Source of the DNA: an uncultured Methylomirabilota bacterium
GTDB taxonomy: Bacteria > Methylomirabilota > Methylomirabilia > Methylomirabilales > 2-02-FULL-66-22
Reading direction: 5' to 3'
DNA length: 64,000 nucleotides
Assembly (NCBI GenBank): GCA_963705305.1
Contig: OY970067.1
Span: 864,001-928,000, forward strand
Positions 6,953 through 49,611 of the stretch are shown in pieces; the stretch's first letter is position 1; each line of letters starts with the position of its first letter. The notes under the pieces are model-generated. The model saw only the letters and a program-made list of their open reading frames with translations, ran no database searches and was not told where the DNA came from. The translations under genes were made by a program, and so were the position numbers.

Positions 6953-7435
6953 TCAACCGCGCTTCCGGTGGGCCTCTCGGTGCGCCAGGCTTACCTTGAC
7001 CACGACCTTGTGCAAGTCGTGCGGGCCCTGATAATGGCACATGGGCAGGTGGGCTTCCTCGGGGAAGAACACCGCAAAATGGGCCGGATGAATGACCAGC
7101 CGCCGGTAATTCTCGGGCGCGGCGTAGAACACGATGTCCTTGGCCGCATCGTACGACGTCACGACCTGGAGGCCTTCGACCGGGGCCAGGCCGATGATCT
7201 CTTCCCCCGACACCAGGTACTGGATGTCGATGTAATCCCGGTGGGACTCGAACTGTCCCTCCTCGGGGGCGCGGGAGGGAGATCGCATGACCATGGCGTA
7301 CACGGCGTCGCCTAGGATCTGATGCTTGCCCGGCGGCAGACTGCCGAGAACGCTCTTCTCCAGAAACTCGAACCCGGCCTCCAGCCCCTCGATCCCCTGG
7401 AGGCCCCGCCACGCGTATATCGACCCCTGAATCAT
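6953..7435 (-). CDS. YhcH/YjgK/YiaL (DUF386) family protein
   Basis: FESHRDYIDIQY...GEEII, FAVFFPEEAHLP, KVVVKV. Confidence 0.9.
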   Translation of the reverse strand: MIQGSIYAWRGLQGIEGLEAGFEFLEKSVLGSLPPGKHQILGDAVYAMVMRSPSRAPEEGQFESHRDYIDIQYLVSGEEIIGLAPVEGLQVVTSYDAAKDIVFYAAPENYRRLVIHPAHFAVFFPEEAHLPMCHYQGPHDLHKVVVKVSLAHREAHRKRG

Positions 7436-7470
7436 TCTCATCCTCCCGCGTCTGCAGACCCCCTGCACCC

Positions 7471-8663: not shown

Positions 8664-9410
8664 TCATCGCGTGAAGATCGCGCCCCGCACGTAGTCGGCG
8701 TCGGGCGAGGCCAGGAAGGCCAGGATGCGGGCCACGCCCATGGGATCGCCCGCCTCCCTGACGGCCTCGGCCCGGGCCTGCTCGAGGTCGCGGCCGGCGG
8801 CCCGCGCCCGGTCCACCAGGTTCTCGATGCGCATGGGGGTGGCGATGCTGCTCGGACAGACCTCGTTGACCCGGATGCCGTGGGGGGCGAGCTGCGCCTC
8901 CAGCGTCATGGCGAACCCATGCACGCCCCCCTTGCTGGCGCCATAGGCCAGAGACGAGCTGGGGATCTTGGTGCCGGCCTCCGAGGCAAAGAGCAGGACC
9001 ACGCCCTTTTTGGCCTTGCGGAGGTGCGGCAGCGCCGCCTTCACGGTCAAGAAGGCGCCCTTCAAATTCACGTCCAGGACGCTCTCGAAGGTGGCCTCCT
9101 CCAGCGCATCGGCCTGGAGCATGGCGCCCTTGAGGATCCCGGCGCAGCAGATCAGCACGTCCAGCCGGCCGCACCGCTCTACGGCCGCCGACGCCAGCCC
9201 TACGCAGTCCTCCTCGCGACGGACGTCGGTCCGCACAAAGGTCGCCTCGCCGCCGGCCGACCGGATCTCGGCCGCGACGGCCCGGCCCTCCGCCTCTAGC
9301 ATGTCGCCGAGGACGACCTTCCCTCCCTCGGCGACGACGGCTTTGGCGGTGGCCGCCCCGATCCCCCGCCCGCCGCCCGTGATGACCACCACGCGGCCTT
9401 CCAGGCGCAT
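8664..9410 (-). CDS. SDR family oxidoreductase
   Basis: TGGGRGIG, CAG, YGASK catalytic motif, IRVN. Confidence 0.92.
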   Translation of the reverse strand: MRLEGRVVVITGGGRGIGAATAKAVVAEGGKVVLGDMLEAEGRAVAAEIRSAGGEATFVRTDVRREEDCVGLASAAVERCGRLDVLICCAGILKGAMLQADALEEATFESVLDVNLKGAFLTVKAALPHLRKAKKGVVLLFASEAGTKIPSSSLAYGASKGGVHGFAMTLEAQLAPHGIRVNEVCPSSIATPMRIENLVDRARAAGRDLEQARAEAVREAGDPMGVARILAFLASPDADYVRGAIFTR

Positions 9411-9454
9411 GCGCGTCCTCCGATCTCCCTTCATTCCCTCGGCCGCGGGTTTCA

Positions 9455-9628
9455 CAAGGTGCTGGGAAACTACCGTTCGACGAGGCCGCTCAAAAAGGCT
9501 CAGATGCAAGGCGCCGCGCCGGGTACCCATCCGTGAGGATGGGTGCAGGCGCGAGGCGTACTCCGCGCGTACGGCGCAGCGCCGCGGGAGCGCGGCAACG
9601 AAGCAGATGGGCCTTTTTCAGCAGCCTG
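9455..9628 (-). mobile_element. MITE copy 1 (IS5-like ends, decayed outer end)
   Basis: Minus strand begins CAGGCTGCTGAAAAAGGCCCATCTGC directly after the TGA stop at 9629; alignable along its length to the copy at 33741. Confidence 0.75.
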
Positions 9629-10267
9629 TCAGGCGTCCACGGTCACCAGCGGCAGCATCCGCTGGAGGAGCGCTTCGGCCCGCACCGGGTTGTAGATCCC
9701 GCAGTGACAGGGCCGGGTCAGCTCCAGGCCCGCCTCTCGCACCGTCTTCTTCCCCCGCCTGATCTCGGCCAGCATCCGCTCGACCAGATTGGCCGGAACC
9801 ATGCCGTGCCCGCACATGGTGGTCAGCTGGAGGACCTCGTCCGCCGGCAGCTTCCTGTACTGGCCGAAGATGCCCAGGGAATTCTCCACCGTGTGCTTGG
9901 CGAGGCCGCTCTCGCGGCAGCCCTTCTCGGTCTCCTCGTGGATCCCCGTGACCACCACCGACATCCCCAGATCGGCCTCCTTCAGCTCCGCGAGGATCTT
10001 GACCACCTCCGCCTCGTCGGTGAAGACCCCATGGACGATGGAGGTGCTCTGGATGTTCCCGAGGATCTCTTCCCGGGACTTGACGTGACAGTTCCCCGTC
10101 ACCATGTCTCCGTAGTTGACCGGCCGGTGGCGCAACAGGATGCCCAGGAACTGCTTCATCCGCTCGGCCGAGCCCTCCTCATTGAGTCCCTTGGCCGACA
10201 TGGTGAAGACGATGTAGTCCTGGCTCAGGCTCTCCCGATCCCCCCGGCGGTGCAGTGTATGCGTCAC
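9629..10267 (-). CDS. Hypothetical His/Cys-rich protein
   Basis: GTG start with AGGAG RBS; THTLHR, KHTVE, TMCGHG, CHCGIYN motifs; co-oriented with the Fe-S genes. Confidence 0.8.
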   Translation of the reverse strand: MTHTLHRRGDRESLSQDYIVFTMSAKGLNEEGSAERMKQFLGILLRHRPVNYGDMVTGNCHVKSREEILGNIQSTSIVHGVFTDEAEVVKILAELKEADLGMSVVVTGIHEETEKGCRESGLAKHTVENSLGIFGQYRKLPADEVLQLTTMCGHGMVPANLVERMLAEIRRGKKTVREAGLELTRPCHCGIYNPVRAEALLQRMLPLVTVDA

Positions 10268-10289: not shown

Positions 10290-11033
10290 TCAGACGGCGG
10301 CCAGCGGTCTCCCCAGGCCGACGTTGCTCTTCCCGTTAATGGAGAGGAAGCGGCCGCGCCCCTGGATTTCCCGCACGTAGGGAACGGAGCCGTCCTCGCC
10401 GACCCGGCTGATGATGTCCCCGGAGAACACGGTGTCGATCTCCTGCGAAACGCGGTCCAGGACTTCCAGGACCTCTGGCAGCCGCTCGATCGGGATCATG
10501 AACTCCACGATGGCGGACAGCACCTTCTCGTCGAGGACCTCGGGGTTGATCCGCCCCTGTGCCCGGTCCACCATGAGCTTCGTGACCGGATTGTTCTCCT
10601 CGAAACTGATCCCCAGCCTGGCCAGCGCCATGGCCACCTTCTCCACATCGCGGAACCGGGTCCCCACGCCGGGCCGGCCCAGCTCGCAGGCCATGCCGTA
10701 CTTCCCCCACCGGTACCGGCCGGTGACCTCGTTGGTCTTCATCTCTTCCGTGCCCCGGCCCGGGATACGGGTCTCGGGGTGAATCTTCAGCGGGTCGCTG
10801 AAGTTCTTCCGCACCGTCCTCGGCCAGACCAGCTCGGGCTGGTACAATGCCTCGGTGGGACAGCAGCCGCTCCGCAGGCAGACGCTGCACTCCACGCACT
10901 CGTCCTCGTCGATCACGTAGGTGATCCGGGTCGGGTTCTTGGGGTCCCGCTCGAAGTGCATGATCCCGCCCAGCATGGTGCAGTACGAGCGGCAGCTGCC
11001 GCACCCGATACACTTCTCAGGATCGATTCTCAC
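10290..11033 (-). CDS. 4Fe-4S dicluster protein with uncharacterised C-terminal domain
   Basis: CIGCGSCRSYC and CVECSVC...CCP; GTG start overlaps the upstream stop (GTGA). Confidence 0.87.
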   Translation of the reverse strand: MRIDPEKCIGCGSCRSYCTMLGGIMHFERDPKNPTRITYVIDEDECVECSVCLRSGCCPTEALYQPELVWPRTVRKNFSDPLKIHPETRIPGRGTEEMKTNEVTGRYRWGKYGMACELGRPGVGTRFRDVEKVAMALARLGISFEENNPVTKLMVDRAQGRINPEVLDEKVLSAIVEFMIPIERLPEVLEVLDRVSQEIDTVFSGDIISRVGEDGSVPYVREIQGRGRFLSINGKSNVGLGRPLAAV

Positions 11034-12340
11034 TGCCGCATCCCTCCCAGCTCCCTCGCCCGGCACGCGCCGCCCATCGCGTACAGTCGCGGCCGGAACG
11101 AGATCCCCCGCTCCACGTCCCGCGCCAGCACCCCGGCCGAGACCTCGGTGCGGTTCTTCACCAGGGCGGTCAGGACCCCCGCGCAGCGCACGTCGCCCAA
11201 CAGCAGGAAGCCGTCCAGGCGCCCGCCCGCGCAGATCAGCTTCCGGTAGAGCGGCCTGTCCTTGTCCATGGTCGTGAGCGCCTCTCCCCCCTCCCAGAGG
11301 CCGGCGGAGATCACCCGCACCCCCAGGATCTCCACCGAGTTCATGCGCAGCGCACCCGAGAACGTCGCCGGCACGCCGGCCATGTTCAGGCCTGCAATCC
11401 GGCCCCCCTCGGTGGCCGAGGGCCAGATGGCGCTGGGGAGATTCTTCCGCTGGAGGACTTCCAGCGGCTCGGCCACGTCCCCGGCGGCGAAGATCCCCGG
11501 GACGCTCGTGCTCATGTGGTCATCCACGATCACGCCCTGGCTCAGGATCACACCCGTGTCCCGCAGGCAGCCGACGTTTGGGTCCACCCCCTTGCCGATG
11601 ATGGCCAGCTCGCACGGAAGCTGGCTCCCGTCCGACAGCGAGACTCCCTCCAGTCGCTCCCGCCCATGAAACGCGGTGACGTCGCTGTGAAAGTGGACCC
11701 GGACCCCGTTCCGCTCGAACGCCCGCAGGAAGAAATCGGAAGCCGTCCGGTCCAGCATCTGGGACAGGATCCGGTCGGAGGAGATCACCAGATGGACCGC
11801 CTTCTTCCTGCCGACCATGGCCTCCAGGCTTTTCACCCCCACCAACCCGCCGCCCACGATCACCACCGGCCCGCGCGTTGTGCGCGCCGCCTTCTTGATC
11901 GCTTCGGCGTCCACGATCTTGCGGAGCGGGAAGACGCCCGCGAGCTCCTTGCCCGGCACCGCCAGCAGCCGGGAGGACGAGCCGGTGGCCACCAAGAGCC
12001 GATCGAAGGGCAGGCTCTTGCCGCGGCCCAGATGGACCTGCCGCCCGCGGGGATCCACCCCCTCGGCCGCGATACCCTGGAGCAGCCGGATGCGCTGCGC
12101 GGCGTAGAACCCTCGGGGAGCGAAGACGAGATCCTGCTTGGTCTTCTTCCCAGCGATGTAGAGGGGCAGCATAGCCCGGGAATAGCCGAAGAGCTTTTCG
12201 TCCGAGACGATGGCGATCTGCCCGTCGGGATCGTGCCGCCGGATCTCCTGGGCGGCCGCGGTCCCGGCCACGCTGTTCCCCAGGATGACGTATCGAACCG
12301 GCTGCCTCTGCCGTGTCGTCGGCTTCATCTGGCTATCCAT
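11030..12340 (-). CDS. FAD-dependent NAD(P)H oxidoreductase (NirB/rubredoxin reductase-like)
   Basis: ILGNSVAG, LLVATGS, VGGGLVG, TSVPGIFAAGD. Confidence 0.9.
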   Translation of the reverse strand: MDSQMKPTTRQRQPVRYVILGNSVAGTAAAQEIRRHDPDGQIAIVSDEKLFGYSRAMLPLYIAGKKTKQDLVFAPRGFYAAQRIRLLQGIAAEGVDPRGRQVHLGRGKSLPFDRLLVATGSSSRLLAVPGKELAGVFPLRKIVDAEAIKKAARTTRGPVVIVGGGLVGVKSLEAMVGRKKAVHLVISSDRILSQMLDRTASDFFLRAFERNGVRVHFHSDVTAFHGRERLEGVSLSDGSQLPCELAIIGKGVDPNVGCLRDTGVILSQGVIVDDHMSTSVPGIFAAGDVAEPLEVLQRKNLPSAIWPSATEGGRIAGLNMAGVPATFSGALRMNSVEILGVRVISAGLWEGGEALTTMDKDRPLYRKLICAGGRLDGFLLLGDVRCAGVLTALVKNRTEVSAGVLARDVERGISFRPRLYAMGGACRARELGGMRQ

Positions 12341-12375
12341 GCCTCGTCTCGTGCGCCGGAAATCTCTTGACGTTT

Positions 12376-12483
12376 CGTCACCCCGGCGAACGCCGGGGTC
12401 CAGGAATACGGTCTGACTGGATTCCGGCTTTCGCCGGAATGACGGAACGGCAGCTCTGGATGCCGGCGTTCGCCGGCATGACG
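12376..12483. repeat. Triplet of 28-bp palindromic REP-like repeats (+,-,-)
   Basis: CGTCACCCCGGCGAACGCCGGGGTCCAG (12376-12403), CTGGATTCCGGCTTTCGCCGGAATGACG (12417-12444), CTGGATGCCGGCGTTCGCCGGCATGACG (12456-12483). Confidence 0.9.
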
Positions 12484-12519
12484 CCCCCGCGCAACTGCGG
12501 AAGCGTTGGAGGCATCTGC

Positions 12520-14073
12520 CTAGCGGGCGCCTCCGGCCGCCAGCATGGCGGCCAGCTCCTCGGCCTGTTCCCGCGGCTCGGGCAGCACCGGCCCCGCCAA
12601 AAGCCTGCCCCCCGTGATCCGCTGCCATTCGGCCGGCAGGACCTCGGCGAGCCACGGGCTTCCCCAGAAGGGCAGCCGGACCCCGATCTGCACCGTGAGT
12701 CCCAGCGCGAACAGGCCGACCGCGCTGGCCCAGGTGGCGGCCCGCGAGAATTCCGGGAAGGCCGCGACCGCCGGGGTGCCGCCATTCCTCCGGGGCAGAC
12801 CGAGCAGCAATGTGACCACCTGGGGAAGCTGGAAGGCGGAGCCGAAGGCGACGATCGGCTGGAGCCCGTCCTTCCCGAGTTCTGCGGCAAAGGCGGCCAG
12901 CCGGCCGCCCGTCCGCTTGTCCAGCTCGGCGGCCAGCGCCTCGGCGTGGGCCCCCAGGTCTCCGCCCAGCAGGATCGGGGCCTTCGCCCCCACCGCCGCC
13001 TCCATCAGGGCCAGCGTGCGCTCGAAGAATGTTTGCTTGGCGTTGCTCTCTCCCATCAGGACCGCCACCCCGCGGATCCGGCCCGCCTCCAGCGCGCCCG
13101 CGAGTGCGTGCGCCGGCGGCAGGGCCAGGCTGCCGGCGCCGGCCTGGAGCCGACGCGACGTGGTCCCGTAGAAGGCGTTCTGGGCGTGATGGGCCGCCTG
13201 GTCGATCACCTGGGCGGCCGTCCGGTCGAAGGGCGCTCTCCCGTCCACCAGGAAGGCGGGCACCCCGTACTTCGCCGCCAGCATCTCCAGCCCAGGCCAG
13301 CCAGCGTTGGGGGCGAGGATCAGCGCGTCCACGTTCATCCCTAGCGCCAGCTCCGGCGAACCGTAGTCGGCAGCCGCCAGGGTGAATGGCAGCCGGCCGC
13401 CCCCCTGCATGAACAGGTTGACCTTCCGCCCCTCCGCCCGCAGTCCCGCCTGATCGAAGGCCCGGACGAGTCCCTCGGGGGCCTGCCCGACGATCAAAAG
13501 GTTGATCCCGCCCGGATCGAACGGCAGACCTGCCTCGCTGCGGGCGAGCCCCGCGGCCGCCTGGCACAGCAGGCCGTACTGGATCAGGCCCAGCCGGGCC
13601 AGGTCCTGGAGGGTCTGGACCAGGTAGCCCTTGTGCGAGAAAAAGCCGTTCTGCACCGAGAACAGGTCCGCCTTCCGGACCGGGAGGAGTCCCGCTTTGG
13701 TCAGGCCCTCCGCGGTCGCCGCGGGCAGGGCGGCGGCCAGATCCGGAAGCTCCTGGCCGGCCCCGGCGATTCCCAAAAGCTGCACGGCCCGGGCCGACTC
13801 CAGCACGCCTTCCAGGGTTGCCTGGAAGAGGGTCTCCATGACGATCTGGTCCCGGTCGGCCCCGCAGGTCCCCTGGCTCGGCTCGTCCCCGAAGGGATTG
13901 ATCCGGCACGGCCCCTGGAAGCACTTCCGGCAGCTCAGGCCGTTGCTGGTGAAGGCGCAGAGCGGCAATTGCCGCTCGTAGCGCTCCCAGGAGAGCTGCG
14001 CCCCGAGGTCGTGTGCCGCCAGCAAGAGGGGAGACGTGTCCGCCAGTGCGCTCTTCTTGTGAATTCGATCCAT
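12520..14073 (-). CDS. CooS (Ni-CODH)-like protein lacking C-cluster ligands
   Basis: N-terminal WERYERQLPLCAF...SCRKCFQGPCRINPFG...TCG matches the CooS D/B-cluster region; C-terminal IRGVAVLMG and AAFPE segments follow the CooS layout; only one Cys after the N-terminal cluster region. Alternative start at 14148. Confidence 0.82.
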   Translation of the reverse strand: MDRIHKKSALADTSPLLLAAHDLGAQLSWERYERQLPLCAFTSNGLSCRKCFQGPCRINPFGDEPSQGTCGADRDQIVMETLFQATLEGVLESARAVQLLGIAGAGQELPDLAAALPAATAEGLTKAGLLPVRKADLFSVQNGFFSHKGYLVQTLQDLARLGLIQYGLLCQAAAGLARSEAGLPFDPGGINLLIVGQAPEGLVRAFDQAGLRAEGRKVNLFMQGGGRLPFTLAAADYGSPELALGMNVDALILAPNAGWPGLEMLAAKYGVPAFLVDGRAPFDRTAAQVIDQAAHHAQNAFYGTTSRRLQAGAGSLALPPAHALAGALEAGRIRGVAVLMGESNAKQTFFERTLALMEAAVGAKAPILLGGDLGAHAEALAAELDKRTGGRLAAFAAELGKDGLQPIVAFGSAFQLPQVVTLLLGLPRRNGGTPAVAAFPEFSRAATWASAVGLFALGLTVQIGVRLPFWGSPWLAEVLPAEWQRITGGRLLAGPVLPEPREQAEELAAMLAAGGAR

Positions 14074-14168: not shown

Positions 14169-14696
14169 CTATGATTTCGTCAGCCCCTTCGCCGCCGTGA
14201 AGTCCAGCCCTGTCAGCCTGGCCCCCTTGCGGACCGGCACCGCTCCCCGGGCGACCTCCTCCGGATCCAGGAACACCAGGGCGCCGGTGGGGCAGCTCTC
14301 GACGCAGAACGGCGCGCTCATCCCGGTGCACTGGTCGCACTTGAACATCTTCCGGAAGCTGCGAAAGGGCTGGGGTGCCCCGAATGGGCACACCATCACG
14401 CACATCCAGCAGCCGATGCACCGCTCGTCGTTGACCAGGACCAGCCCACCGTCCTCTCGGTACAGTGCCTTGGCAGGGCAGGCGTCCAGGCAGGGCGCGT
14501 CCTGACAATGGCGGCACTGCACGGGGAAGCCGTTCTCGGTGCCCGTATCCTCCACCCGCACCCTGGCCAGAGGGGCGGGGTTCTCGTAGATCGCTTCCGG
14601 CAGGCTCTTGCTCAACGAGCCCCGGTTCAGCGCGCAGGCGATTTCACAACTCTTGCACGCCACACACCGCTCTGCGTTCACGAAGATGGATTTCAT
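14169..14696 (-). CDS. cooF: CooF/DmsB-like 4x[4Fe-4S] electron-transfer protein
   Basis: CVACKSCEIAC, CRHCQDAPCLDACP, CIGCWMCVMVCPFG, KCDQC...CVESCPT; adjacent to the cooS-like gene. Confidence 0.85.
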   Translation of the reverse strand: MKSIFVNAERCVACKSCEIACALNRGSLSKSLPEAIYENPAPLARVRVEDTGTENGFPVQCRHCQDAPCLDACPAKALYREDGGLVLVNDERCIGCWMCVMVCPFGAPQPFRSFRKMFKCDQCTGMSAPFCVESCPTGALVFLDPEEVARGAVPVRKGARLTGLDFTAAKGLTKS

Positions 14697-14788: not shown

Positions 14789-15976
14789 TCAGAACCGCGA
14801 CTCTTGCACGTAGATGTCGATGGGCTCGGAATAGGTCAACGTCTCGCTGCGGGACAGGGTGCCCGAGGCGACGTCCAGGGCCGTCCGGTAGAGGCGTTCG
14901 CCGGCCGCCTCCGGGCTCTCGGAACCCTCGATCACCGTGCCCGAGTAGAAATCGATGCTGTCGCGGGCGGCCGCGTAGGTATGCGGGTTGGCCGTGGTCC
15001 AAAGGAAGGGCGCCACCACCGACGGGGAGCCTTCCAAGAGCGTCCGCCCGGCCACGCCGCCGCCGCCGAGCTGAAACAGGACCAGGTTGGCTCCCGCCGC
15101 GGCGTACCCGGCAAAGATGGAGAGATGGCCCATCCAGTTGTCCACGAAGTAGAGGCCCTTTCCACCCGGCCGCTCGGCGTACTTCAGCACGCCCCGGATC
15201 GGCGCCGTCCCCGCCTTGTGGATCGCCCCCAGGCTCTTCTCTTCCAAGGAGCTGAGCCCCCCTTTAATGTTGGAGGGCACCGGGTTCACGGTGCGGATGT
15301 CCAGGCCCGTGGCCTTGGCCAGCGCCTCCCGGCGGGCCGCCGCATCCAGGATGGCCTGGGCCACCTGCGGCGTGGCGGCGCGCCGCGCCAGCGCCTGCTC
15401 GGCCCCGATGATCTCGGTCGTCTCGCCGAACAGCGCCGTGCCGCCCGCGGCCACGACCTTGTCGTAGAGATAGCCCACGGCCGGGTTTCCGGCGATGCCC
15501 GAGGTGGTGTCGGAGTACCCGCACTTGACCCCCAGGCACAGATGCTCGTCCCCGACCGGCTCGCGCCGCAGCCTGGAGGCCTCGTACACCAGCGTCCGGG
15601 CCAACTGGATGCCCTTGACGATAGCCCCGTAGGTGCCCCCGTCCCTGGCTGGATCCACCACCTCCACCCGCTTCTTGGCGTCGGCGATCTCGTCGGCCAG
15701 CCGCTCCACCGCGAGCTCCGGGTAGCCCACGCCGGGGCTGGCGGCGTGCAGGATCACGGCGGCCACGTTGGGGTTCCTCCCCAAACCGATCAGCACGCGG
15801 GCGATCGTCTCCCGGTCACTGGCGGTGCGGCCGGAGCCGTGGTCGGCGGTGACGATCGTCTTGGTTCCGGCCACGAAATCGCAGATGGACTTGGAGATGA
15901 CCCCCTGCGGCAACACCAGGACGTAATTCCGGGTGCCGACGGATCCGTCGGACCGGACGTAACCCAGAAAGCTCAT
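14789..15976 (-). CDS. UxaA/GarD/SuyB family dehydratase or lyase, large subunit
   Basis: GYVRSDGSVGTRNY, NPNVAA, KCGYSDTTSG...NPAVG, GETTE, NIKGGLSSLEEKSLG. Confidence 0.87.
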   Translation of the reverse strand: MSFLGYVRSDGSVGTRNYVLVLPQGVISKSICDFVAGTKTIVTADHGSGRTASDRETIARVLIGLGRNPNVAAVILHAASPGVGYPELAVERLADEIADAKKRVEVVDPARDGGTYGAIVKGIQLARTLVYEASRLRREPVGDEHLCLGVKCGYSDTTSGIAGNPAVGYLYDKVVAAGGTALFGETTEIIGAEQALARRAATPQVAQAILDAAARREALAKATGLDIRTVNPVPSNIKGGLSSLEEKSLGAIHKAGTAPIRGVLKYAERPGGKGLYFVDNWMGHLSIFAGYAAAGANLVLFQLGGGGVAGRTLLEGSPSVVAPFLWTTANPHTYAAARDSIDFYSGTVIEGSESPEAAGERLYRTALDVASGTLSRSETLTYSEPIDIYVQESRF

Positions 15977-16281
15977 CCCCTGCCGCTCCTTTCCAGGTCG
16001 CCGCGGGCGCGCATCCCTTCCAGGTTGTGGATGTGGACCAGCGCCCCCTGCGGGATGTGGACCCCTGCCCTGCCGATGGGCTCCCCGTACTTCCGGATGA
16101 CCGCGCCCCGGGCGATCTCCTCCAATGCGATCTTGAATCCGAACGGGATCAGCTCGCAGGCCTGGACCGTGAGTGAGCCCGGTCCTGCCGGCACCGCAAC
16201 CTCGTCTCCCGCCCGGATCTCCTCCATAGCCGTGGCCACGTTGTCGGAAGGATGCATGATCAGCGCGCGTTTCGCCGCCAT
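15973..16281 (-). CDS. UxaA/SuyA family SAF-domain small subunit
   Basis: DNVATA, IPFGFKIAL, KYGEPIG, VHIHN; 4-nt overlap with the large subunit. Confidence 0.88.
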   Translation of the reverse strand: MAAKRALIMHPSDNVATAMEEIRAGDEVAVPAGPGSLTVQACELIPFGFKIALEEIARGAVIRKYGEPIGRAGVHIPQGALVHIHNLEGMRARGDLERSGRG

Positions 16282-16450
16282 GGCTCCCCGTCCTCCTTCA
16301 CGAAGGCTGTCACAACAATCCGTCCGCCGCCAACCCGCAGAGAGTCTATCCGTCGCGGCGGCCCTCTCCTCCACCCCGAGCGCCGGGTCGCCGGCGAGAA
16401 TGGGCATGCCCTCTGACACGGCCGAGGCCGCGGCGTCCGCACACCGCTCC

Positions 16451-16480
16451 AGCATGCCTCGTGGCGCGGAGGCTTGTCAA
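16451..16480 (-). promoter_or_regulatory. Putative sigma70 promoter of the uxaA-cooF-cooS-like operon
   Basis: Minus strand TTGACA-N18-CATGCT. Confidence 0.4.
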
Positions 16481-16529: not shown

Positions 16530-17174
16530 TCACTTGGCGCGGTAGCCGACCAGGCCCGCCTCCAGGGCGCGCCGGTCCACCCGGCTGAGGCTCTTTTCCA
16601 TGGCGGCGGTCAAGATGCGCGTGTGCGGGATATCCACCAGATAATCCGGGATGAACCAGAGATCGTCCTCGCTGGTCATCCAGCCCGGATGTATCCCGTC
16701 GAAGCGGCCGAGATTGACCGGGCGGGAATAGGCGCGCAGGGTCCGGTCGCCCCGCAGGTTGATGTAGTCCTCGAAGTAGCTCATCGCCAGCTCGCGCAGG
16801 CTCCGGTAGACCGGGGCGCGGAAACGCAGGCCCGAGAAGTTCGACTTGGCAATGGCGCCCCAGTGGCCGTTCCGGCGGTAGACGGCGATGACGTGATCCG
16901 TGTCCTGCACCGCCTCCAGATCCAGCAAGAGCGGCGGGTAGCCCAGGGCGCGCAGCGCGGCGGCGGCAAAGATGGCCCCCTCCAGGCAGTGGGCCGTCCC
17001 CGCGCGAAGCACCCGCCGCGGCGACCATGCCGTCTTGGCCAGGTGGTAGGGCATGGCGTCCAGCATCCGCTGGATCCCCACCGGCGAGCGCAGGGCCTGC
17101 AGCCGCCGGAGCTCCCGCCGGGTAAACCCACCCGCTTGCACCAGCCTGGGGGACGTTGCGACTTTATTGACCAT
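16530..17174 (-). CDS. Hypothetical protein, transglutaminase-like Cys/His motifs
   Basis: AHCLEGA, DHVIAVY, WGAIAKSN; GGAAGGA RBS before ATG 17174 (alternative start 17207). Confidence 0.75.
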   Translation of the reverse strand: MVNKVATSPRLVQAGGFTRRELRRLQALRSPVGIQRMLDAMPYHLAKTAWSPRRVLRAGTAHCLEGAIFAAAALRALGYPPLLLDLEAVQDTDHVIAVYRRNGHWGAIAKSNFSGLRFRAPVYRSLRELAMSYFEDYINLRGDRTLRAYSRPVNLGRFDGIHPGWMTSEDDLWFIPDYLVDIPHTRILTAAMEKSLSRVDRRALEAGLVGYRAK

Positions 17175-18144
17175 ATTCCTTCCCAGGTCCGCACCCCTCA
17201 CGATCATTTACTCCCCCTGGGGGGATCGAGGCCGGGGCTGTCTTGGACGGCAGCAGCACGGTGGAAAGAGAGGCCACCACCAGGAGCAGCGCCACGAAGT
17301 CGGACCAGTGGGGCGTCTCGCCCAGGAGCAGCATGCCGCTGAACACCCCCACCACGGGGACCATCATGACCGCGAGGCTGGAGACGCCCACGGGGGCCAC
17401 CAGAGCGATCTTCATCCAGGCCCAATAACAGAAGATGAAGGCCACGAAGACGTTGTAGAGGATGCCCAGCAGCGGCCAGACCGACAGCGCAAAGGGGCTG
17501 AAGCTGCCCGGCTCCAGAAAGAGGGCGGCGGCGAGGATGGGGACGACGGCGACGGCCATCTGCCAGGCCGTGAAGGAGGTCACCGGCAGATGGACGGGCC
17601 AGCGCTTCATGATGACGGTCCCCAGGGCCCAGGAGACTGCACCCCCGATGACGAAGAGCGCCCCCAGCGGCGCCTCGCCGAAGGCGGCGAGCTCGTTCGC
17701 CAGGAGGAGCAGCATGCCCGAGAAGCCGAGGACGACCCCGACCACTCGCCGCCGGGTGAAGGGCTCGCCGAGAAGCCAGGCGGAGAGCATGACGCCCCAC
17801 ACCGGCATGGTGTAGCCCAAGATCGCGGCCCGTCCGGACGCCATCAGGCGGACGCCGTAGATCACTAGCACGTTCCAGCCCATCATGTTGACCAGCCCGA
17901 TGAGGATCATCCGCGGCCACTGGCCCTCCGGCACCTGGAGGCGGTGGCCGTCGATCCGGGCGATGGCGAACAGGCCCAGGGCGCCGAAGAGGAGGCACGC
18001 CGTCCGGAAGTGCATGGGCCCCATCTCCGACAGGACCACCTTCATCACCGGCCAGTTGAACCCCCAGCCGAGAGTCAGACCCACCAGCAAGCCGAGAAGG
18101 TGGCCGGGAAACGTGTGGGCGGAGGCCTGATCGTTCTTTTCCAA
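17164..18144 (-). CDS. DMT/EamA family transporter
   Basis: About 10 hydrophobic segments; WGFNWP, LLGEP, LLLGET; probable TTG start after GGAGAG. Confidence 0.87.
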   Translation of the reverse strand: MEKNDQASAHTFPGHLLGLLVGLTLGWGFNWPVMKVVLSEMGPMHFRTACLLFGALGLFAIARIDGHRLQVPEGQWPRMILIGLVNMMGWNVLVIYGVRLMASGRAAILGYTMPVWGVMLSAWLLGEPFTRRRVVGVVLGFSGMLLLLANELAAFGEAPLGALFVIGGAVSWALGTVIMKRWPVHLPVTSFTAWQMAVAVVPILAAALFLEPGSFSPFALSVWPLLGILYNVFVAFIFCYWAWMKIALVAPVGVSSLAVMMVPVVGVFSGMLLLGETPHWSDFVALLLVVASLSTVLLPSKTAPASIPPGGVNDREGCGPGKEYGQ

Positions 18145-18361
18145 GGAATCTCTCCAAAGCTCCTGGTCGTCCGGCGGCTGCCCGCCAGCCGCCGTCCGGG
18201 CGGCAGCATGCGCGGGGATCTCCCAATTGTCAAGCCAGAAGCGCGCCGGCGGCGGGTTGACCGCCGGCCCGCGGCAGGGAACGCCCCGCCACGCCCGGCA
18301 GCGCTCCCCCGACTTGTGGGGGACGGCCTGCCCCGCGAAGGGGCGTCCTCCCCCCTGCCCC

Positions 18362-18390
18362 TTGACACCATGCGGCCCATGGGATATAGA
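18362..18390 (+). promoter_or_regulatory. Putative sigma70 promoter of the NitT/TauT ABC operon
   Basis: TTGACA-N17-TATAGA with a CCATG-N5-CATGG palindrome in the spacer. Confidence 0.45.
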
Positions 18391-18435
18391 GCTAGCCCGG
18401 GCCGGCGGGCCGCCGTCCGGGCATAAGGATTGCTC

Positions 18436-19275
18436 ATGAGTTTCCGCTCCGCCCCCACCATCAATGCAGGCGCCCCCGCGGCATCGAAGCGCCTGCGCCG
18501 GCTCCTTCGCAGCCAACGCGTCCTGGTGAGCTTTGTCCTGTTGTTCTTTCTGTGGGAGGGTGCGGTCCGACTGTTCCGCGTCCCCTCCTATTTGCTGCCC
18601 CCTCCGTCCGTCATCGCGCTGGATCTCCTGGCCCGCTGGAGCCGCGTGATGCAAAACACGCTCATTACGACGCAGGAGATCGTGGCGGGATATCTCGCGG
18701 CGGTGCTGATCAGCATCCCGCTCGCGCTGCTGATCGCCCATTCCCGCTTCATGGAAGAAACGGTCTATCCCATCATCGTCTTTTTCCAGATCGTGCCGAA
18801 GATTGCCATTGCGCCCCTGTTCATCATCTGGTTTGGATTCGGCTTCACTCCCAAGCTGCTGCTGGTATTCCTCCTGTCGTTCTTCCCGATCGTGGTCAGT
18901 AGCATTGCCGGTTTCAAGTCGGTGGACGCGGAAATATTAGACCTGGCTCGCTCCACGGGGGCGAGCCCGTGGATGATGTTCCGCAAGATCCGGCTGCCGT
19001 ACGCGCTGCCAAGCATCTTCACAGGGCTCAAGGTTGCCGCCGCGCTCTCGCCGACGGCGGCCGTGGTGGCCGAGTTCGTGGCGTCGGACAAGGGGCTAGG
19101 CTACCTGCTGCTGGAATTCAATGGAAACCTCAATACCTCCATGGTGTTTGCCACAATCGTCGTGCTGAGCATCGTGGGCCTGCTTGTCTACTACGCGGTG
19201 GAACTGATCGAGCGGATCCTCATCCCCTGGCATGTCACGACGCAAAAGGAGACTCGGAACGCGGACTATCTGTGA
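18436..19275 (+). CDS. NitT/TauT family ABC transporter permease
   Basis: LPPPS, PKIAIAPLFIIWFGFG, VVAEFV...GLG. Confidence 0.92.
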   Translation: MSFRSAPTINAGAPAASKRLRRLLRSQRVLVSFVLLFFLWEGAVRLFRVPSYLLPPPSVIALDLLARWSRVMQNTLITTQEIVAGYLAAVLISIPLALLIAHSRFMEETVYPIIVFFQIVPKIAIAPLFIIWFGFGFTPKLLLVFLLSFFPIVVSSIAGFKSVDAEILDLARSTGASPWMMFRKIRLPYALPSIFTGLKVAAALSPTAAVVAEFVASDKGLGYLLLEFNGNLNTSMVFATIVVLSIVGLLVYYAVELIERILIPWHVTTQKETRNADYL

Positions 19276-39038: not shown

Positions 39039-39066
39039 TGTCATTCCGGCGAAAGCCGGAATCCAG
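39039..39066 (+). repeat. REP-like palindrome upstream of the GIY-YIG gene
   Basis: TGTCATTCCGGCGAAAGCCGGAATCCAG. Confidence 0.9.
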
Positions 39067-39093
39067 TGAAGTCCGAGTTCAGACCCTGAGGCT

Positions 39094-39387
39094 ATGCGAT
39101 TGAAGCAGCCTTGCGTGTACTTGCTCGCAAGCCGCCGAAACGGGACGCTATATGTCGGAGTCACCTCGGACTTGGTCAAGCGCGCATGGGAGCACAAAGA
39201 AAACCTTGCCGACGGATTCACCAGACGGTATGGAGTGCACATGTTGGTCTGGTATGAGCTGCATGAGTCCATGGAAGCGGCCATCCAGCGCGAGAAAGCG
39301 ATCAAGGAGTGGAAGCGACGCTGGAAGCTGGAGTCGATCGAGAAGACGAATCCGAGCTGGCGCGACTTGTACACAGACCTATTGTGA
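39094..39387 (+). CDS. Stand-alone GIY-YIG nuclease (UPF0213/YhbQ-like)
   Basis: CVYLLAS...TLYVGVTSDL..R..EH...FT.RY...LVWYE...AIQREK.IK.W.R.WK...NP.W.DL. Confidence 0.93.
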   Translation: MRLKQPCVYLLASRRNGTLYVGVTSDLVKRAWEHKENLADGFTRRYGVHMLVWYELHESMEAAIQREKAIKEWKRRWKLESIEKTNPSWRDLYTDLL

Positions 39388-39391
39388 GGGG

Positions 39392-39686
39392 CTGGATTCC
39401 GGCGTGCACCGGAATGACGGAGGGGAAGGGCTGGCGTGCTGGGCCTTGTCGTCACCCCGGCCCCGGTCCTCATCGGGGGAAATTCCAGCCGCGGTCCAGA
39501 CGGCCTTTCGTCACCCCGGCGGACGCCGGGGTCCAGGATCGGGGCTCAACCGGATTCCGGCTTTCGCCGGAATGACAAGGGGGGACTCTGGATGCCGGCA
39601 TCCGCCGGCATGACGGAGATACGGCAGGATTCTCGGTGAGGGGAGATGGCGGAGGGGGGCTCTGGATATCGGCGAACGCCGGAATG
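39392..39686. repeat. Cluster of six REP-like palindromes downstream of the GIY-YIG gene
   Basis: Units at 39392-39419(-), 39450-39499(+, long-loop variant), 39509-39536(+), 39550-39577(-), 39588-39615(-), 39662-39686(-, degenerate). Confidence 0.88.
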
Positions 39687-47870: not shown

Positions 47871-47897
47871 CTAAGGGCTGCACTCCAGCGGAATCTC

Positions 47898-47965
47898 CGT
47901 CATTCCGGCGAAAGCCGGAATCCAGAATTTCCCCCCCTGTCGCTCCGGCGAACGCCGGGCCCGGG
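47898..47965 (+). repeat. REP-like palindrome plus a degenerate copy
   Basis: CGTCATTCCGGCGAAAGCCGGAATCCAG at 47898-47925; TGTCGCTCCGGCGAACGCCGG from about 47938. Confidence 0.85.
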
Positions 47966-47999
47966 ATGGCAACGCCGAGAAACCTCCGAAGGCCCTACC

Positions 48000-48680
48000 C
48001 TATCCAAGAGTCCGCTTCAGGCGCGAGGCGCGCCATTTCCAGGGGCGGTCCTCCGCCCGACGGTACCAGGGGGCGGTCCGGTACGAGGTGAAGGCCTCCT
48101 GGAGCGCGGCGCGCGCCTCATCCCGCCTCGCCAGACGATCCAGCGCCTCCCCCAGCTTGTACCAGCCCTCCACGCTGGAGCCGTGTATCCCGGTGGCCTG
48201 ACGGTAGCGCTGGGCCGCCTCCTCCCACTCGCCGCGCTCGGCCCGGAAGTCCCCCAGGCGCAGGTACGGCTCCCCGTAGCCGAATTTGGGATTGATCTCA
48301 AGGGCTCGCTCCACCAGTTGGCGCCCCCGCTCGATGTCGCCGTCGTGCAGCAGACACAGACCCAACCCGTAGTTGGCCTCGGATAGGTCGTCAACGCGCG
48401 GGAAGGCCTGCTCCAGCTCCGCCCGGGCCTCCTTGAAGCGTCCGCGCCGGACCATGATCATCCCCAGGTCGGTCCGGGCCTTCACGTCGTGCGGGTTGAG
48501 GCCGAGCTCGCGCCGGAGCCGCCCCGCCTCTCCCCACTCTCGCATTTTTCGGCTGAGTCGCCAGGCCCAGCGCGAGCCCGCCCACCATCCCGGCAGGGAC
48601 AGGAGGACGAGGACCAGGATCGCCAGGATCGGATTGCCGAGGATCCAGGTGAGCAGGGCGAAGAGGAGGAAGCGACCCAT
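48000..48680 (-). CDS. Membrane-anchored TPR protein
   Basis: Hydrophobic N-terminus followed by TPR-like repeats (ANYGLGLCL, ALEINP, WYKLGEAL). Confidence 0.85.
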   Translation of the reverse strand: MGRFLLFALLTWILGNPILAILVLVLLSLPGWWAGSRWAWRLSRKMREWGEAGRLRRELGLNPHDVKARTDLGMIMVRRGRFKEARAELEQAFPRVDDLSEANYGLGLCLLHDGDIERGRQLVERALEINPKFGYGEPYLRLGDFRAERGEWEEAAQRYRQATGIHGSSVEGWYKLGEALDRLARRDEARAALQEAFTSYRTAPWYRRAEDRPWKWRASRLKRTLG

Positions 48681-48825
48681 ACCGACTCCAGGCCGGGGTG
48701 CCGACGCGTTCGCACGCCGGAACGCGTCGCGGCGCCTCCCATTTCGGCTTCCGAGCCCCCGGGCCACATGATGAGAATGGGGACGGAGGTCCCGTCCCCT
48801 ATCGCGCGGTTGTCCTGCGCCAGGA

Positions 48826-49395
48826 TCACGCCGTCAGGATCTCTTTCAAGCGCGCCTTGGAATCTTCCAGAACGACAGCGTGCAGGCTGTTGCCGTGGGC
48901 ATCCATCGTGACCACGGCCGGGAACTCCTTCACCCGCAGCGCCCAGATGGCTTCCGGGCTGCCGAACTGCTCGAGATACACACCCAAGACCTCGGTGACG
49001 CTTTCCGCCAGGACCTGGGCGGCTCCCCCCACGGCATGCAGGTACACGCAGCCCACCTTGGCGCAGGCCTCCAGGGTCTTGGGACCCATGCCCCCCTTGC
49101 CGATCACCGCCCGCAGCTTGAACCGCTCGATCAATTCGCCCTGGAACGGCTCTTCCCGGATCGAGGTCGTCGGTCCGGCCGCCGTGACGACCCACTTGCC
49201 CTTCTGCTTGATCACCACCGGGCCGCAGTGGTAGATCATCTGGTTTTCCAGTGGCACCGGCGGGGGATTTCCCTCGTGCAGGTACTTGTGCACGGCGTCG
49301 CGGCCGGTATAGACCTTGCCGGAGATGTGCACCATGTCCCCCGTCTTCAACGCGCGGATCTTCTCCTCGGTGTACGGCTCAGCCAGCTGGATCAT
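48826..49395 (-). CDS. Class I fumarate hydratase/tartrate dehydratase beta subunit
   Basis: TGRDAVH, YHCGP, AGPTTS, IGKGGMG, MDAHG. Confidence 0.93.
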   Translation of the reverse strand: MIQLAEPYTEEKIRALKTGDMVHISGKVYTGRDAVHKYLHEGNPPPVPLENQMIYHCGPVVIKQKGKWVVTAAGPTTSIREEPFQGELIERFKLRAVIGKGGMGPKTLEACAKVGCVYLHAVGGAAQVLAESVTEVLGVYLEQFGSPEAIWALRVKEFPAVVTMDAHGNSLHAVVLEDSKARLKEILTA

Positions 49396-49416
49396 GATCG
49401 CCCCCTGGGGAGAGAT

Positions 49417-49445
49417 GTCAGTGGTCAGCGGTCAGCGGTCAGCGG
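49417..49445. repeat. Heptamer tandem repeat (GTCAGCG)x4
   Basis: gtcagtg gtcagcg gtcagcg gtcagcg g. Confidence 0.8.
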
Positions 49446-49484
49446 CGCTGGTAATGCAGCGCGTCGGAAATCTCTTGATGTCCT

Positions 49485-49581
49485 GTCACCCCGGCAGTCA
49501 TTCCGGCGAAAGCGGGGGCCGGAACTACATATCGGCACCTCGATGTCATCTTCCGTCATTCCGGCGAAAGCCGGAATCCAG
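49485..49581 (+). repeat. REP-like palindromes between the fumarase subunit genes
   Basis: Partial copies at 49485-49512 and full CGTCATTCCGGCGAAAGCCGGAATCCAG at 49554-49581. Confidence 0.85.
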
Positions 49582-49611
49582 TCGGACCCGGCCCGCCCTG
49601 GACCCCCGCTG

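Follow-up and report, generated by a model that had tools for sequence, protein, structure and literature searches.

Introduction

In the Ni,Fe carbon monoxide dehydrogenase (CODH) CODH-II of C. hydrogenoformans, the C-cluster is coordinated by H261, C295, C333, C446, C476 and C526 and the D-cluster by C39 and C47, and in hybrid-cluster proteins (HCPs) the hybrid cluster is held by Cys, His and Glu ligands in the C-terminal domains. Here we analyze a gene of an uncultured Methylomirabilota bacterium (assembly GCA_963705305.1, contig OY970067.1), located in a 64,000-nucleotide stretch (positions 864,001 to 928,000; hereafter the window), whose product is predicted to adopt the CODH fold while carrying other residues at all six C-cluster ligand positions. 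This protein, termed pseudo-CooS, is encoded in a conserved five-gene module that also contains a pair of uncharacterised Fe-S proteins, referred to here as Fer4X and Y.

CODH scaffolds put to other uses have been described before. CooS-V of C. hydrogenoformans (clade D, Protein Data Bank (PDB) entry 7b7q) is presented as a CODH scaffold that carries a hybrid cluster and does not oxidize CO (PMC13240472), and the account of the clade B enzyme RfCODH is that of a repurposed scaffold whose role is inferred from its operon partners, with a C-cluster, weak CO oxidation and a link to an ABC transporter (PMC13592312). Short forms are also on record as mini-CooS or clade G, with the Thermosinus carboxydivorans form given as 482 residues long (Techtmann 2012, PMC3328121; Inoue 2022, PMC8776680) and said to retain all cluster ligands (Techtmann 2012, PMC3328121). 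According to the accessible sections of Inoue 2019 (PMC6344411), Inoue 2022 (PMC8776680) and a 2026 marine survey, sequences with mutated C-clusters were removed before analysis, and the accessible part of a 2025/26 genomic-context preprint leaves out clades G and H; filtering on C-cluster ligands makes a clade that lacks them invisible in the clade A-H scheme. In a search of open-access main texts, neither a CooS family devoid of the C-cluster nor its Fer4X-Y partners turned up. Repurposing of the scaffold thus has precedents in CooS-V and clade B, and what appears new, as judged from sequence, is a family that has lost the C-cluster altogether and stands in a Fer4X-Y context.

Pseudo-CooS is predicted to fold as a CODH

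The module comprises five genes in the order in which they are transcribed:

14169..14696, minus strand: CooF-like ferredoxin (P0276), 175 residues, 16 Cys, four CxxCxxCxxxC(P)-type motifs for four [4Fe-4S] clusters
12520..14073, minus strand: pseudo-CooS (P0002), 517 residues, CODH fold
11030..12340, minus strand: FAD/NAD(P)-dependent oxidoreductase (FNOR), Pyr_redox_2 family
10290..11033, minus strand: Fer4X, 247 residues from the GTG at 11033, in an open reading frame (ORF) that extends to 11066
9629..10267, minus strand: Y (P0273), 212 residues, a Cys3-His protein

The pseudo-CooS ORF runs on the minus strand from an ATG at 14073 to a TAG stop at 12522-12520, with a GGAG Shine-Dalgarno sequence 4 nt 5' of the ATG, and its homologues begin at the same Met. 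A 665-residue reading from a GTG at 14517 was rejected as an artefact of the 68-69% G+C content. The protein contains only six Cys, at residues 39, 48, 51, 56, 70 and 170, five of them N-terminal, as an earlier reading made from the letters alone (hereafter the sequence-only reading) had counted; that reading had also placed the intact ORF between cooF and a flavoprotein gene, which are indeed the adjoining CooF-like (14169-14696) and Pyr_redox_2 (11030-12340) genes.

Pseudo-CooS passes the Pfam Prismane/CODH model (PF03063, 46.5 bits against a cut-off of 27) and fails the CooS equivalog TIGR01702 (83.3 bits against 478), which is the only NCBIfam model that it matches. The 36 PDB sequence matches consist of Ni-CODHs throughout, with no HCP among them; residues 14-89 align residue for residue with CODH-II 14-89, and the C-terminal part (320-507) aligns with CODH-II 424-621. 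An HCP identity was considered and rejected on these grounds, together with the lack of any Cys after residue 170. The AlphaFold2 (AF2) model (pLDDT 92.3, pTM 0.93) retrieves Ni-CODH-family chains, CooS-V included, as all of the PDB matches listed by Foldseek (TMq 0.73-0.80, E ~1e-20 to 1e-23), and both methods thus assign the three-domain CODH architecture to pseudo-CooS. CODH-II (1su6), in which the N-terminal B-cluster motif is identically placed, and R. rubrum CooS (1jqk) match at TMq 0.75-0.80, and CooS-V at TMq 0.76.

Every C-cluster ligand position is occupied by another residue

For ligand assignment, numbering was anchored on the canonical CooS P0187, aligned end to end with CODH-II chain 1su6_A, and sites were transferred through a 34-sequence MAFFT L-INS-i alignment that includes mini-CooS intermediates. 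The CODH-II ligand set agrees with the titles of PDB mutant entries (C295D, K563A, H93A) and with the motif description in the accessible text of Inoue 2019 (PMC6344411). Pseudo-CooS keeps the four B-cluster ligands C48, C51, C56 and C70 as well as C39, and the D-cluster pair is incomplete, C47 being replaced by S47. In the C-cluster region H261 corresponds to Q197 (IVGQAP), C333 to A257 (APNAGWP), C446 to E342 (LMGESN) and C526 to A413 (FGSAF); C295 falls next to a gap, at about G224 (FMQGGG), a placement uncertain by 1-2 residues, and C476 corresponds to D372 (LGGDLG), which pairwise phmmer shifts 2-3 residues earlier, to a site equally devoid of Cys. The acid-base residues are likewise gone, with H93 replaced by S93 and K563 by A446, and no Cys is found beyond residue 170. 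The assignments that the sequence-only reading had made by eye, for the B- and D-clusters, for all six C-cluster positions and for the loss of K563, match this alignment throughout, within the uncertainty noted at C295. By its sequence, pseudo-CooS is therefore predicted to be unable to bind a canonical C-cluster. Compared with canonical CooS it is also about 120 residues shorter and has no CooC-like gene nearby, whereas the neighboring CooF-like and FNOR genes are alike; the contrast with CooS-V is that the latter binds its Fe-S-O hybrid cluster via most of the Cys ligands, of which pseudo-CooS has none.

Nor is there a canonical subunit with which pseudo-CooS could pair. The 5.65-Mb single-contig genome contains no Prismane-family or TIGR01702 match other than pseudo-CooS itself, so that the heterodimer with a genuine CooS, which the sequence-only reading had put forward for checking, is excluded in the source genome. 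The same reading's remark that no cooC lies nearby holds: the window contains no CooC-like gene, and the genome's 17 CbiA/CooC-family matches all fall outside it, the nearest lying ~75 kb away.

The ligand losses are shared by a family under purifying selection

A word-indexed protein search returned 206 proteins at E <= 1e-3, of which the 120 listed are 46-68% identical to pseudo-CooS, 425-556 residues long and spread over several phyla; an exhaustive search of 50%-identity representatives returned 420 at the same threshold. Residue conservation was counted over 96 aligned family members. The five N-terminal Cys (B-cluster and C39) are kept in 96/96, and C446 is replaced by Glu in every one of them. 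At the other ex-ligand sites, C476 is Asp or Glu in 79 and Gly or Ala in 14, H261 is Gln in 83 and C333 is Ala in 82, while C526 varies freely (A 40, L 15, F 12, W 7, also S, Y, V and others). K563 is Ser or Ala in 93 members, H93 is T or S across the family, and position 47 is N in 68, S in 26 and V in 2. Two further residues, W448 and W470, are invariant, and N/D256 occurs in 86/96. As the kept Cys and the Glu at C446 are common to all 96 members, the pattern is not due to chance. Mean conservation is highest, at 0.92, in the N-terminal Fe-S-binding segment (residues 41-80), and the 20-residue blocks starting from residue 101 reach 0.33-0.81; a second, larger alignment of 124 rows has the four B-cluster Cys in every row.

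In a set of 73 CooS-like sequences, all but one have Cys or Asp at position 39, which indicates that something is constrained there. Many short CooS-like representatives (~460-530 residues; P0149, P0159, P0162) have Asp39 and Ser/Thr47 with an intact B-cluster motif and lack the C-cluster Cys, and at least one group of such Asp39-type proteins (L114, L119; L numbers denote loci and P numbers proteins) is also tied to Fer4X, Y and FNOR.

Selection on the module was estimated from pairwise dN/dS (NG86), in which dS is probably underestimated in these GC-rich genes and the ratios are hence biased upward. Pseudo-CooS gives 0.08 in the closest pair (L009/L010) and 0.19-0.48 in more distant pairs, values that speak for purifying selection and against the relaxed, pseudogene-type selection that the sequence-only reading had named as its test. 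Fer4X (0.05-0.20) and Y (0.03-0.15) are more strongly constrained, the pseudo-CooS ratio being the higher one in all 8 orthologue pairs; two pairs involving L002 were left out of this comparison, the Fer4X-Y of that locus being a divergent paralogue (41-46% identity). The same order is seen at the protein level, where Fer4X is 63-87% and Y 58-86% identical across L003-L017, and pseudo-CooS 30-68% across L002-L017.

The expectation that annotation pipelines would mislabel such proteins was also borne out. Ten of the 120 listed homologues are named 'hydroxylamine reductase (hybrid-cluster protein)' and one 'anaerobic carbon-monoxide dehydrogenase catalytic subunit', and labels of this kind may lead to false CO or hydroxylamine metabolism being attributed to Methylomirabilota, Thermodesulfobacteriota, Acidobacteriota and other metagenome-assembled genomes.

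A five-gene module in fixed order

Searching homologous loci with the window neighbors (tblastn) recovered the fixed order CooF-like, pseudo-CooS, FNOR, Fer4X, Y. A CooF-like homologue lies directly upstream of pseudo-CooS in 11/12 family loci, and FNOR-Fer4X-Y follow on the 3' side in all ten family loci with downstream DNA, as well as behind the CooS-like gene in 4/4 loci of distant C-cluster-less relatives. In L002 the Fer4X-Y pair lies upstream instead, and the contig ends at pseudo-CooS. The start of Fer4X overlaps the stop of FNOR (GTGA). At L012 (10001-12650) the aligned parts of pseudo-CooS and FNOR amount to 227 and 350 residues and neither gene has a full ORF called, while Fer4X and Y are intact; this could reflect assembly frameshift errors or real decay of the package.

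The adjacency of cooS-like, cooF-like and FNOR genes is that of the known CooS-CooF-FNOR clusters, and what the locus appears to lack, judging by the ligand positions, is a catalytically competent CooS as electron source. The best NCBIfam match of FNOR is PadH (247 bits, below the cut-off of 475); that of the CooF-like protein is DmsB (94 bits), with PadI also among its matches (67 bits). In phenylglyoxylate:NAD+ oxidoreductase, PadH and PadI serve as the NAD-coupling subunits, a flavoprotein and a polyferredoxin that couple a ferredoxin-type enzyme to NAD, and the resemblance of the two module proteins fits this coupling logic, although both matches are below equivalog cut-offs and the Pad enzyme has no CooS-fold subunit.

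Fer4X consists of an N-terminal ferredoxin domain for two [4Fe-4S] clusters followed by a C-terminal domain of ~170 residues, and its conserved motifs include GRGTEEMKTNEVTGR and GKSNVGLGRP. The C-terminal domain has no Pfam, NCBIfam or PDB relative, the PDB profile search having matched the ferredoxin domain only. Y has the invariant residues H6, R7, H125, C152, H154, C187 and C189 (MCGH ... CxCG); Pfam and NCBIfam contain no family for it, no match in a PDB profile search had an E lower than 0.58, and its AF2 model (pLDDT 80.9) has no Foldseek match in the PDB at E <= 0.001. VIA-align in its wide mode reached a best Z of 6.5, to generic ferredoxin-like alpha/beta domains over residues ~10-142, and in the ESM Atlas both Y and the Fer4X C-terminal domain retrieved 'hypothetical protein' clusters only. 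Complex prediction of pseudo-CooS with Fer4X and Y scored 0.65, and 0.59 after substitution of Fer4X, values that weigh on neither side of the binding question.

An optional package of CooS-like gene and FNOR beside Fer4X-Y

The source genome encodes three Fer4X-Y copies, one in the module and two more (L085, L086), one of these behind GntR/FCD, TRAP and cyclase-family genes and the other next to genes for an ABC transporter and a xylose-isomerase-like TIM-barrel protein; both lack CooS-like, FNOR and CooF-like genes. A metagenome scan with two Y peptide patterns matched at least 605 stretches, 591 of which encode a Y relative, and 80 metagenomic Y loci (L087-L166) were kept for context counts. 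Where at least 800 bp precede Y (63 loci), Fer4X is its immediate upstream neighbor in 57. Among the 80, a CooS-like gene and FNOR occur together in 15, a CooS-like gene alone in 2 and FNOR alone in 7 (mostly at contig ends), and of the nine Y loci with >=4 kb on each side, four have both and five have neither. In the reverse direction, 64 other CooS loci (L018-L081) have FNOR nearby in 28 cases, which is the known CooS-FNOR context, and Fer4X-Y in three, all with short CooS forms. By these counts, the CooS-like gene and FNOR behave as an optional add-on package to Fer4X-Y. The pair is usually found beside TRAP or ABC transporters. As an abundant uncharacterised Fe-S pair it is a candidate new redox enzyme, likely the catalytic core of the module, and merits study in its own right.

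The CooS-like partners of Fer4X-Y span all states of the C-cluster. Complete C-cluster motifs occur at L067, L099, L101 and L124, partial ones at L030, L044, L127, L161 and L162, and none in the pseudo-CooS family, L096 (identical to P0130), L114, L119 and L014-L017. Two loci, L133 and L159, keep the C-cluster ligands and have N at D-cluster position 47, the L133 contig ending before K563. The short forms with complete motifs (L067, L099, L101, L124) adjoin the same FNOR, Fer4X and Y genes as pseudo-CooS does. With complete, partial and absent C-clusters, the module is a natural experiment on the roles of the CODH scaffold beyond CO chemistry.

Pseudo-CooS is likewise short in the manner of mini-CooS. 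Five stretches of CODH-II are missing from the family, at about residues 101-155, 230-238, 275-281, 356-370 and 408-415. The short CooS-likes P0139, P0151, P0158, P0221 and P0245 have deletions at these positions too, four of them being present in 5/5 and the fifth (~408-415) in 3/5, and such proteins retain either five C-cluster Cys or the complete motif. The difference is that the pseudo-CooS family keeps no C-cluster ligand. A quick maximum-likelihood tree (57 rows, SH-aLRT support only, several long branches, to be treated with care) provides no supported join between the C-cluster-less clade and the mini-CooS groups. The phylogeny called for by the sequence-only reading places pseudo-CooS inside a supported clade (SH-aLRT 96) of 16 C-cluster-less proteins, made up of the pseudo-CooS family, P0125, P0130/L015 and P0132/L014/L016/L017. 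Of the 57 rows, 31 lack and 26 have the C-terminal C-cluster Cys, a distribution that needs at least three changes of state. Since Fer4X-Y is accompanied by CooS-likes with complete, partial or absent C-clusters, the cluster appears to have been lost at least three times among the CooS-likes of the module, and such repeated loss inside one module suggests that the function retained there does not need it.

Proposed role of pseudo-CooS and alternatives

The reading that we favor, and to which we give a little better than even weight, is that pseudo-CooS acts as a noncatalytic electron-relay or docking subunit that would link NAD(P)H to an uncharacterised Fe-S enzyme; as part of this explanation, it would descend from a short Ni,Fe-CODH of the mini-CooS type. 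In such a scheme, the FAD of FNOR would be reduced by NAD(P)H, or the reaction would run in the reverse direction, and electrons would travel via the four CooF-like clusters to the B-cluster of a pseudo-CooS dimer, with an atypical cluster at Cys39 as a conceivable further station, and end at the two Fer4X clusters and the Cys3-His site of Y, where chemistry on an imported organic or sugar acid would occur. The CODH body would have been kept as a docking hub that joins the FNOR/CooF package with Fer4X-Y, in addition to its role as a wire, and the former active-site cavity would be filled, with Glu342 at its center. The 'Fe-S wire or scaffold' of the sequence-only reading is compatible with both the conservation profile and the gene context, and it stays a proposal. 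That reading did not include the context that proved decisive here, namely the proposed descent from mini-CooS, the membership in a C-cluster-less clade and the two strongly conserved Fe-S proteins encoded downstream of FNOR.

Several observations weigh against this proposal. Docking of pseudo-CooS with its module partners is read from gene context, as is its contribution to the module, and the Fer4X-Y pair, itself uncharacterised, occurs without a CooS-like partner in most loci. With C39 alone left of the D-cluster motif, and position 47 being N or S in 94/96 members, the canonical electron exit of CODHs may be altered or absent. The invariance of E342, W448 and W470 and the retention of Q197 in 83/96 amount to a constraint in or near the former pocket for which a role as mere wire offers no obvious reason. 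Finally, the CooS-like and FNOR genes appear fragmented in L012.

The pocket residues are what lends weight to the best-surviving rival, which we rate as unlikely though deserving attention: that a new site, such as a carboxylate-ligated metal or a substrate or effector pocket, has been built where the C-cluster used to be. The protein would then retain catalysis or serve as a sensor, and its B-cluster would either feed the site or read it. Besides the invariant Glu342, W448 and W470, the Asp/Glu at C476 (79/96), Q197 and N/D256 would be at home in such a pocket, at least one carboxylate is present at an ex-ligand position in every C-cluster-less subgroup, and CooS-V, with its hybrid cluster and no CO oxidation (PMC13240472), and clade B RfCODH (PMC13592312), as these reports present them, would be precedents. 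A redox-active metal site is nevertheless improbable with no His or Cys available; the C526 position varies freely and C476 is Gly or Ala in 14/96; the carboxylate shifts position among subgroups (A-E-D, D-G-E, G-E-G), as expected for the filling of a cavity and not for a single conserved site; and pseudo-CooS evolves faster than Fer4X and Y. For the 'new ligand site' of the sequence-only reading, the conservation data point both ways: E342, W448 and W470 are invariant, but three of the six ex-ligand positions vary freely and no pocket residue is conserved across the wider C-cluster-less clade.

Rather less probable in our view is a pure structural remnant, an assembly platform or chaperone for FNOR, CooF and Fer4X-Y in which the B-cluster would be structural and carry no electrons. 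Joint gain and loss of the CooS-like gene and FNOR and the incompleteness of the D-cluster motif would be accommodated by such a role, but the B-cluster Cys, invariant in all 124 rows and lying in the most conserved segment, have the conservation typical of a working redox center. We attach very little weight to a decaying CODH pseudogene: the loss of every catalytic ligand and the TIGR01702 score of 83 against 478 bits would suit decay, and against it stand an intact 517-codon frame, at least 120 homologues of 425-556 residues in several phyla, dN/dS values of 0.08-0.48 and fixed synteny. A working Ni,Fe-CODH with unconventional ligands is hardly credible, in spite of the CODH fold and of CooF and FNOR neighbors like those of the CooS-CooF-FNOR clusters in the accessible text of Inoue 2019 (PMC6344411), as the protein lacks H93, H261, K563 and any Cys beyond residue 170, and the window has no CooC-family gene.

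Returning to the relay or docking subunit, a broader version of that proposal, which we hold only tentatively and at less than even weight, is that short CooS-fold proteins are dedicated partners of a widespread, undescribed Fer4X-Y enzyme; together with FNOR, these proteins would constitute an NAD(P)H-linked oxidoreductase of a new type whose substrates would be imported organic acids, with the CODH body exapted as a redox hub. If this were true, CO chemistry would be dispensable in the module, and CO oxidation may not be the physiological role even of 'complete' mini-CooS or clade G proteins. As its report describes it, clade B RfCODH retains the C-cluster and is linked to a transporter, whereas pseudo-CooS lacks the cluster and stands with FNOR and Fer4X-Y.

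Flanking genes and the spacer repeat

Flank genes were called with a crude GC3-based ORF caller that misses or merges some genes, and their descriptions rest on Pfam matches. In the window, the flanks and the spacer are as follows:

17164-18741, same strand, upstream: EamA transporter
16530-17207, same strand, upstream: 225-residue protein without a family
14789..16455, minus strand: split UxaA/GarD-family dehydratase, with the SAF small subunit at 15973-16455 and the GD_AH large subunit at 14789-15976
12341..12519, minus strand, spacer between pseudo-CooS and FNOR, 179 nt: copy of a dispersed, strongly folding GC-rich palindromic repeat, REP/MITE-like, outside the protein machinery
8664-9530, minus strand, downstream: SDR, 78% identical in L006
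7471-8559, minus strand, downstream: URO-D/MtaA-like protein
6953-7468, minus strand, downstream: YhcH/DUF386 protein

L005 (Methylomirabilales) and L006 (Baltobacteraceae) have the split dehydratase at the same upstream place, with 82-88% identity, above the conservation of pseudo-CooS; it is lineage-specific context outside the core module. A SuyAB-type sulfo-lyase was considered for the SAF and GD_AH pair, which in NCBIfam matches galactarate dehydratase alone, at 149.8 bits against a cut-off of 730.85. The EamA transporter is found near the module in the window and L005, and the SDR in the window and L006. Elsewhere, the module is flanked by TRAP transporters and GntR/FCD regulators (L009, L013), by an MFS transporter upstream and a GntR/FCD regulator downstream (L017), by an aldehyde:ferredoxin oxidoreductase (L003) or by Zn-dependent alcohol dehydrogenases (L013, L015). 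These flanks, with transporters, dehydratase and dehydrogenases that vary by lineage, point to catabolism of imported organic or sugar acids as the probable setting of the module.

A RACo-type ATP-dependent reductive activase is encoded directly downstream of the module in L004 (14634-16586), L007 (14497-16533) and L012 (14549-16492), which may be a sign that certain lineages depend on low-potential reduction of the Fer4X-Y site driven by ATP. The RACo-type protein combines a 2Fe-2S domain with an ASKHA ATPase, as in reductive activators of corrinoid enzymes, and the loci are Syntrophaceae/deltaproteobacterial.

The 179-nt spacer is unusually long, and its repeat has 22 further partial matches in the genome, at 76-100% identity, and occurs in the window also at ~39040-39615 and 47896-49588. 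Its predicted folding energy is -92 kcal/mol (z = -5.3 relative to shuffled sequence); three hairpins are visible by eye, of which the predicted fold nests two into one long stem. In homologous loci the gap between pseudo-CooS and FNOR is short, 6-10 bp where checked (L005, L013).

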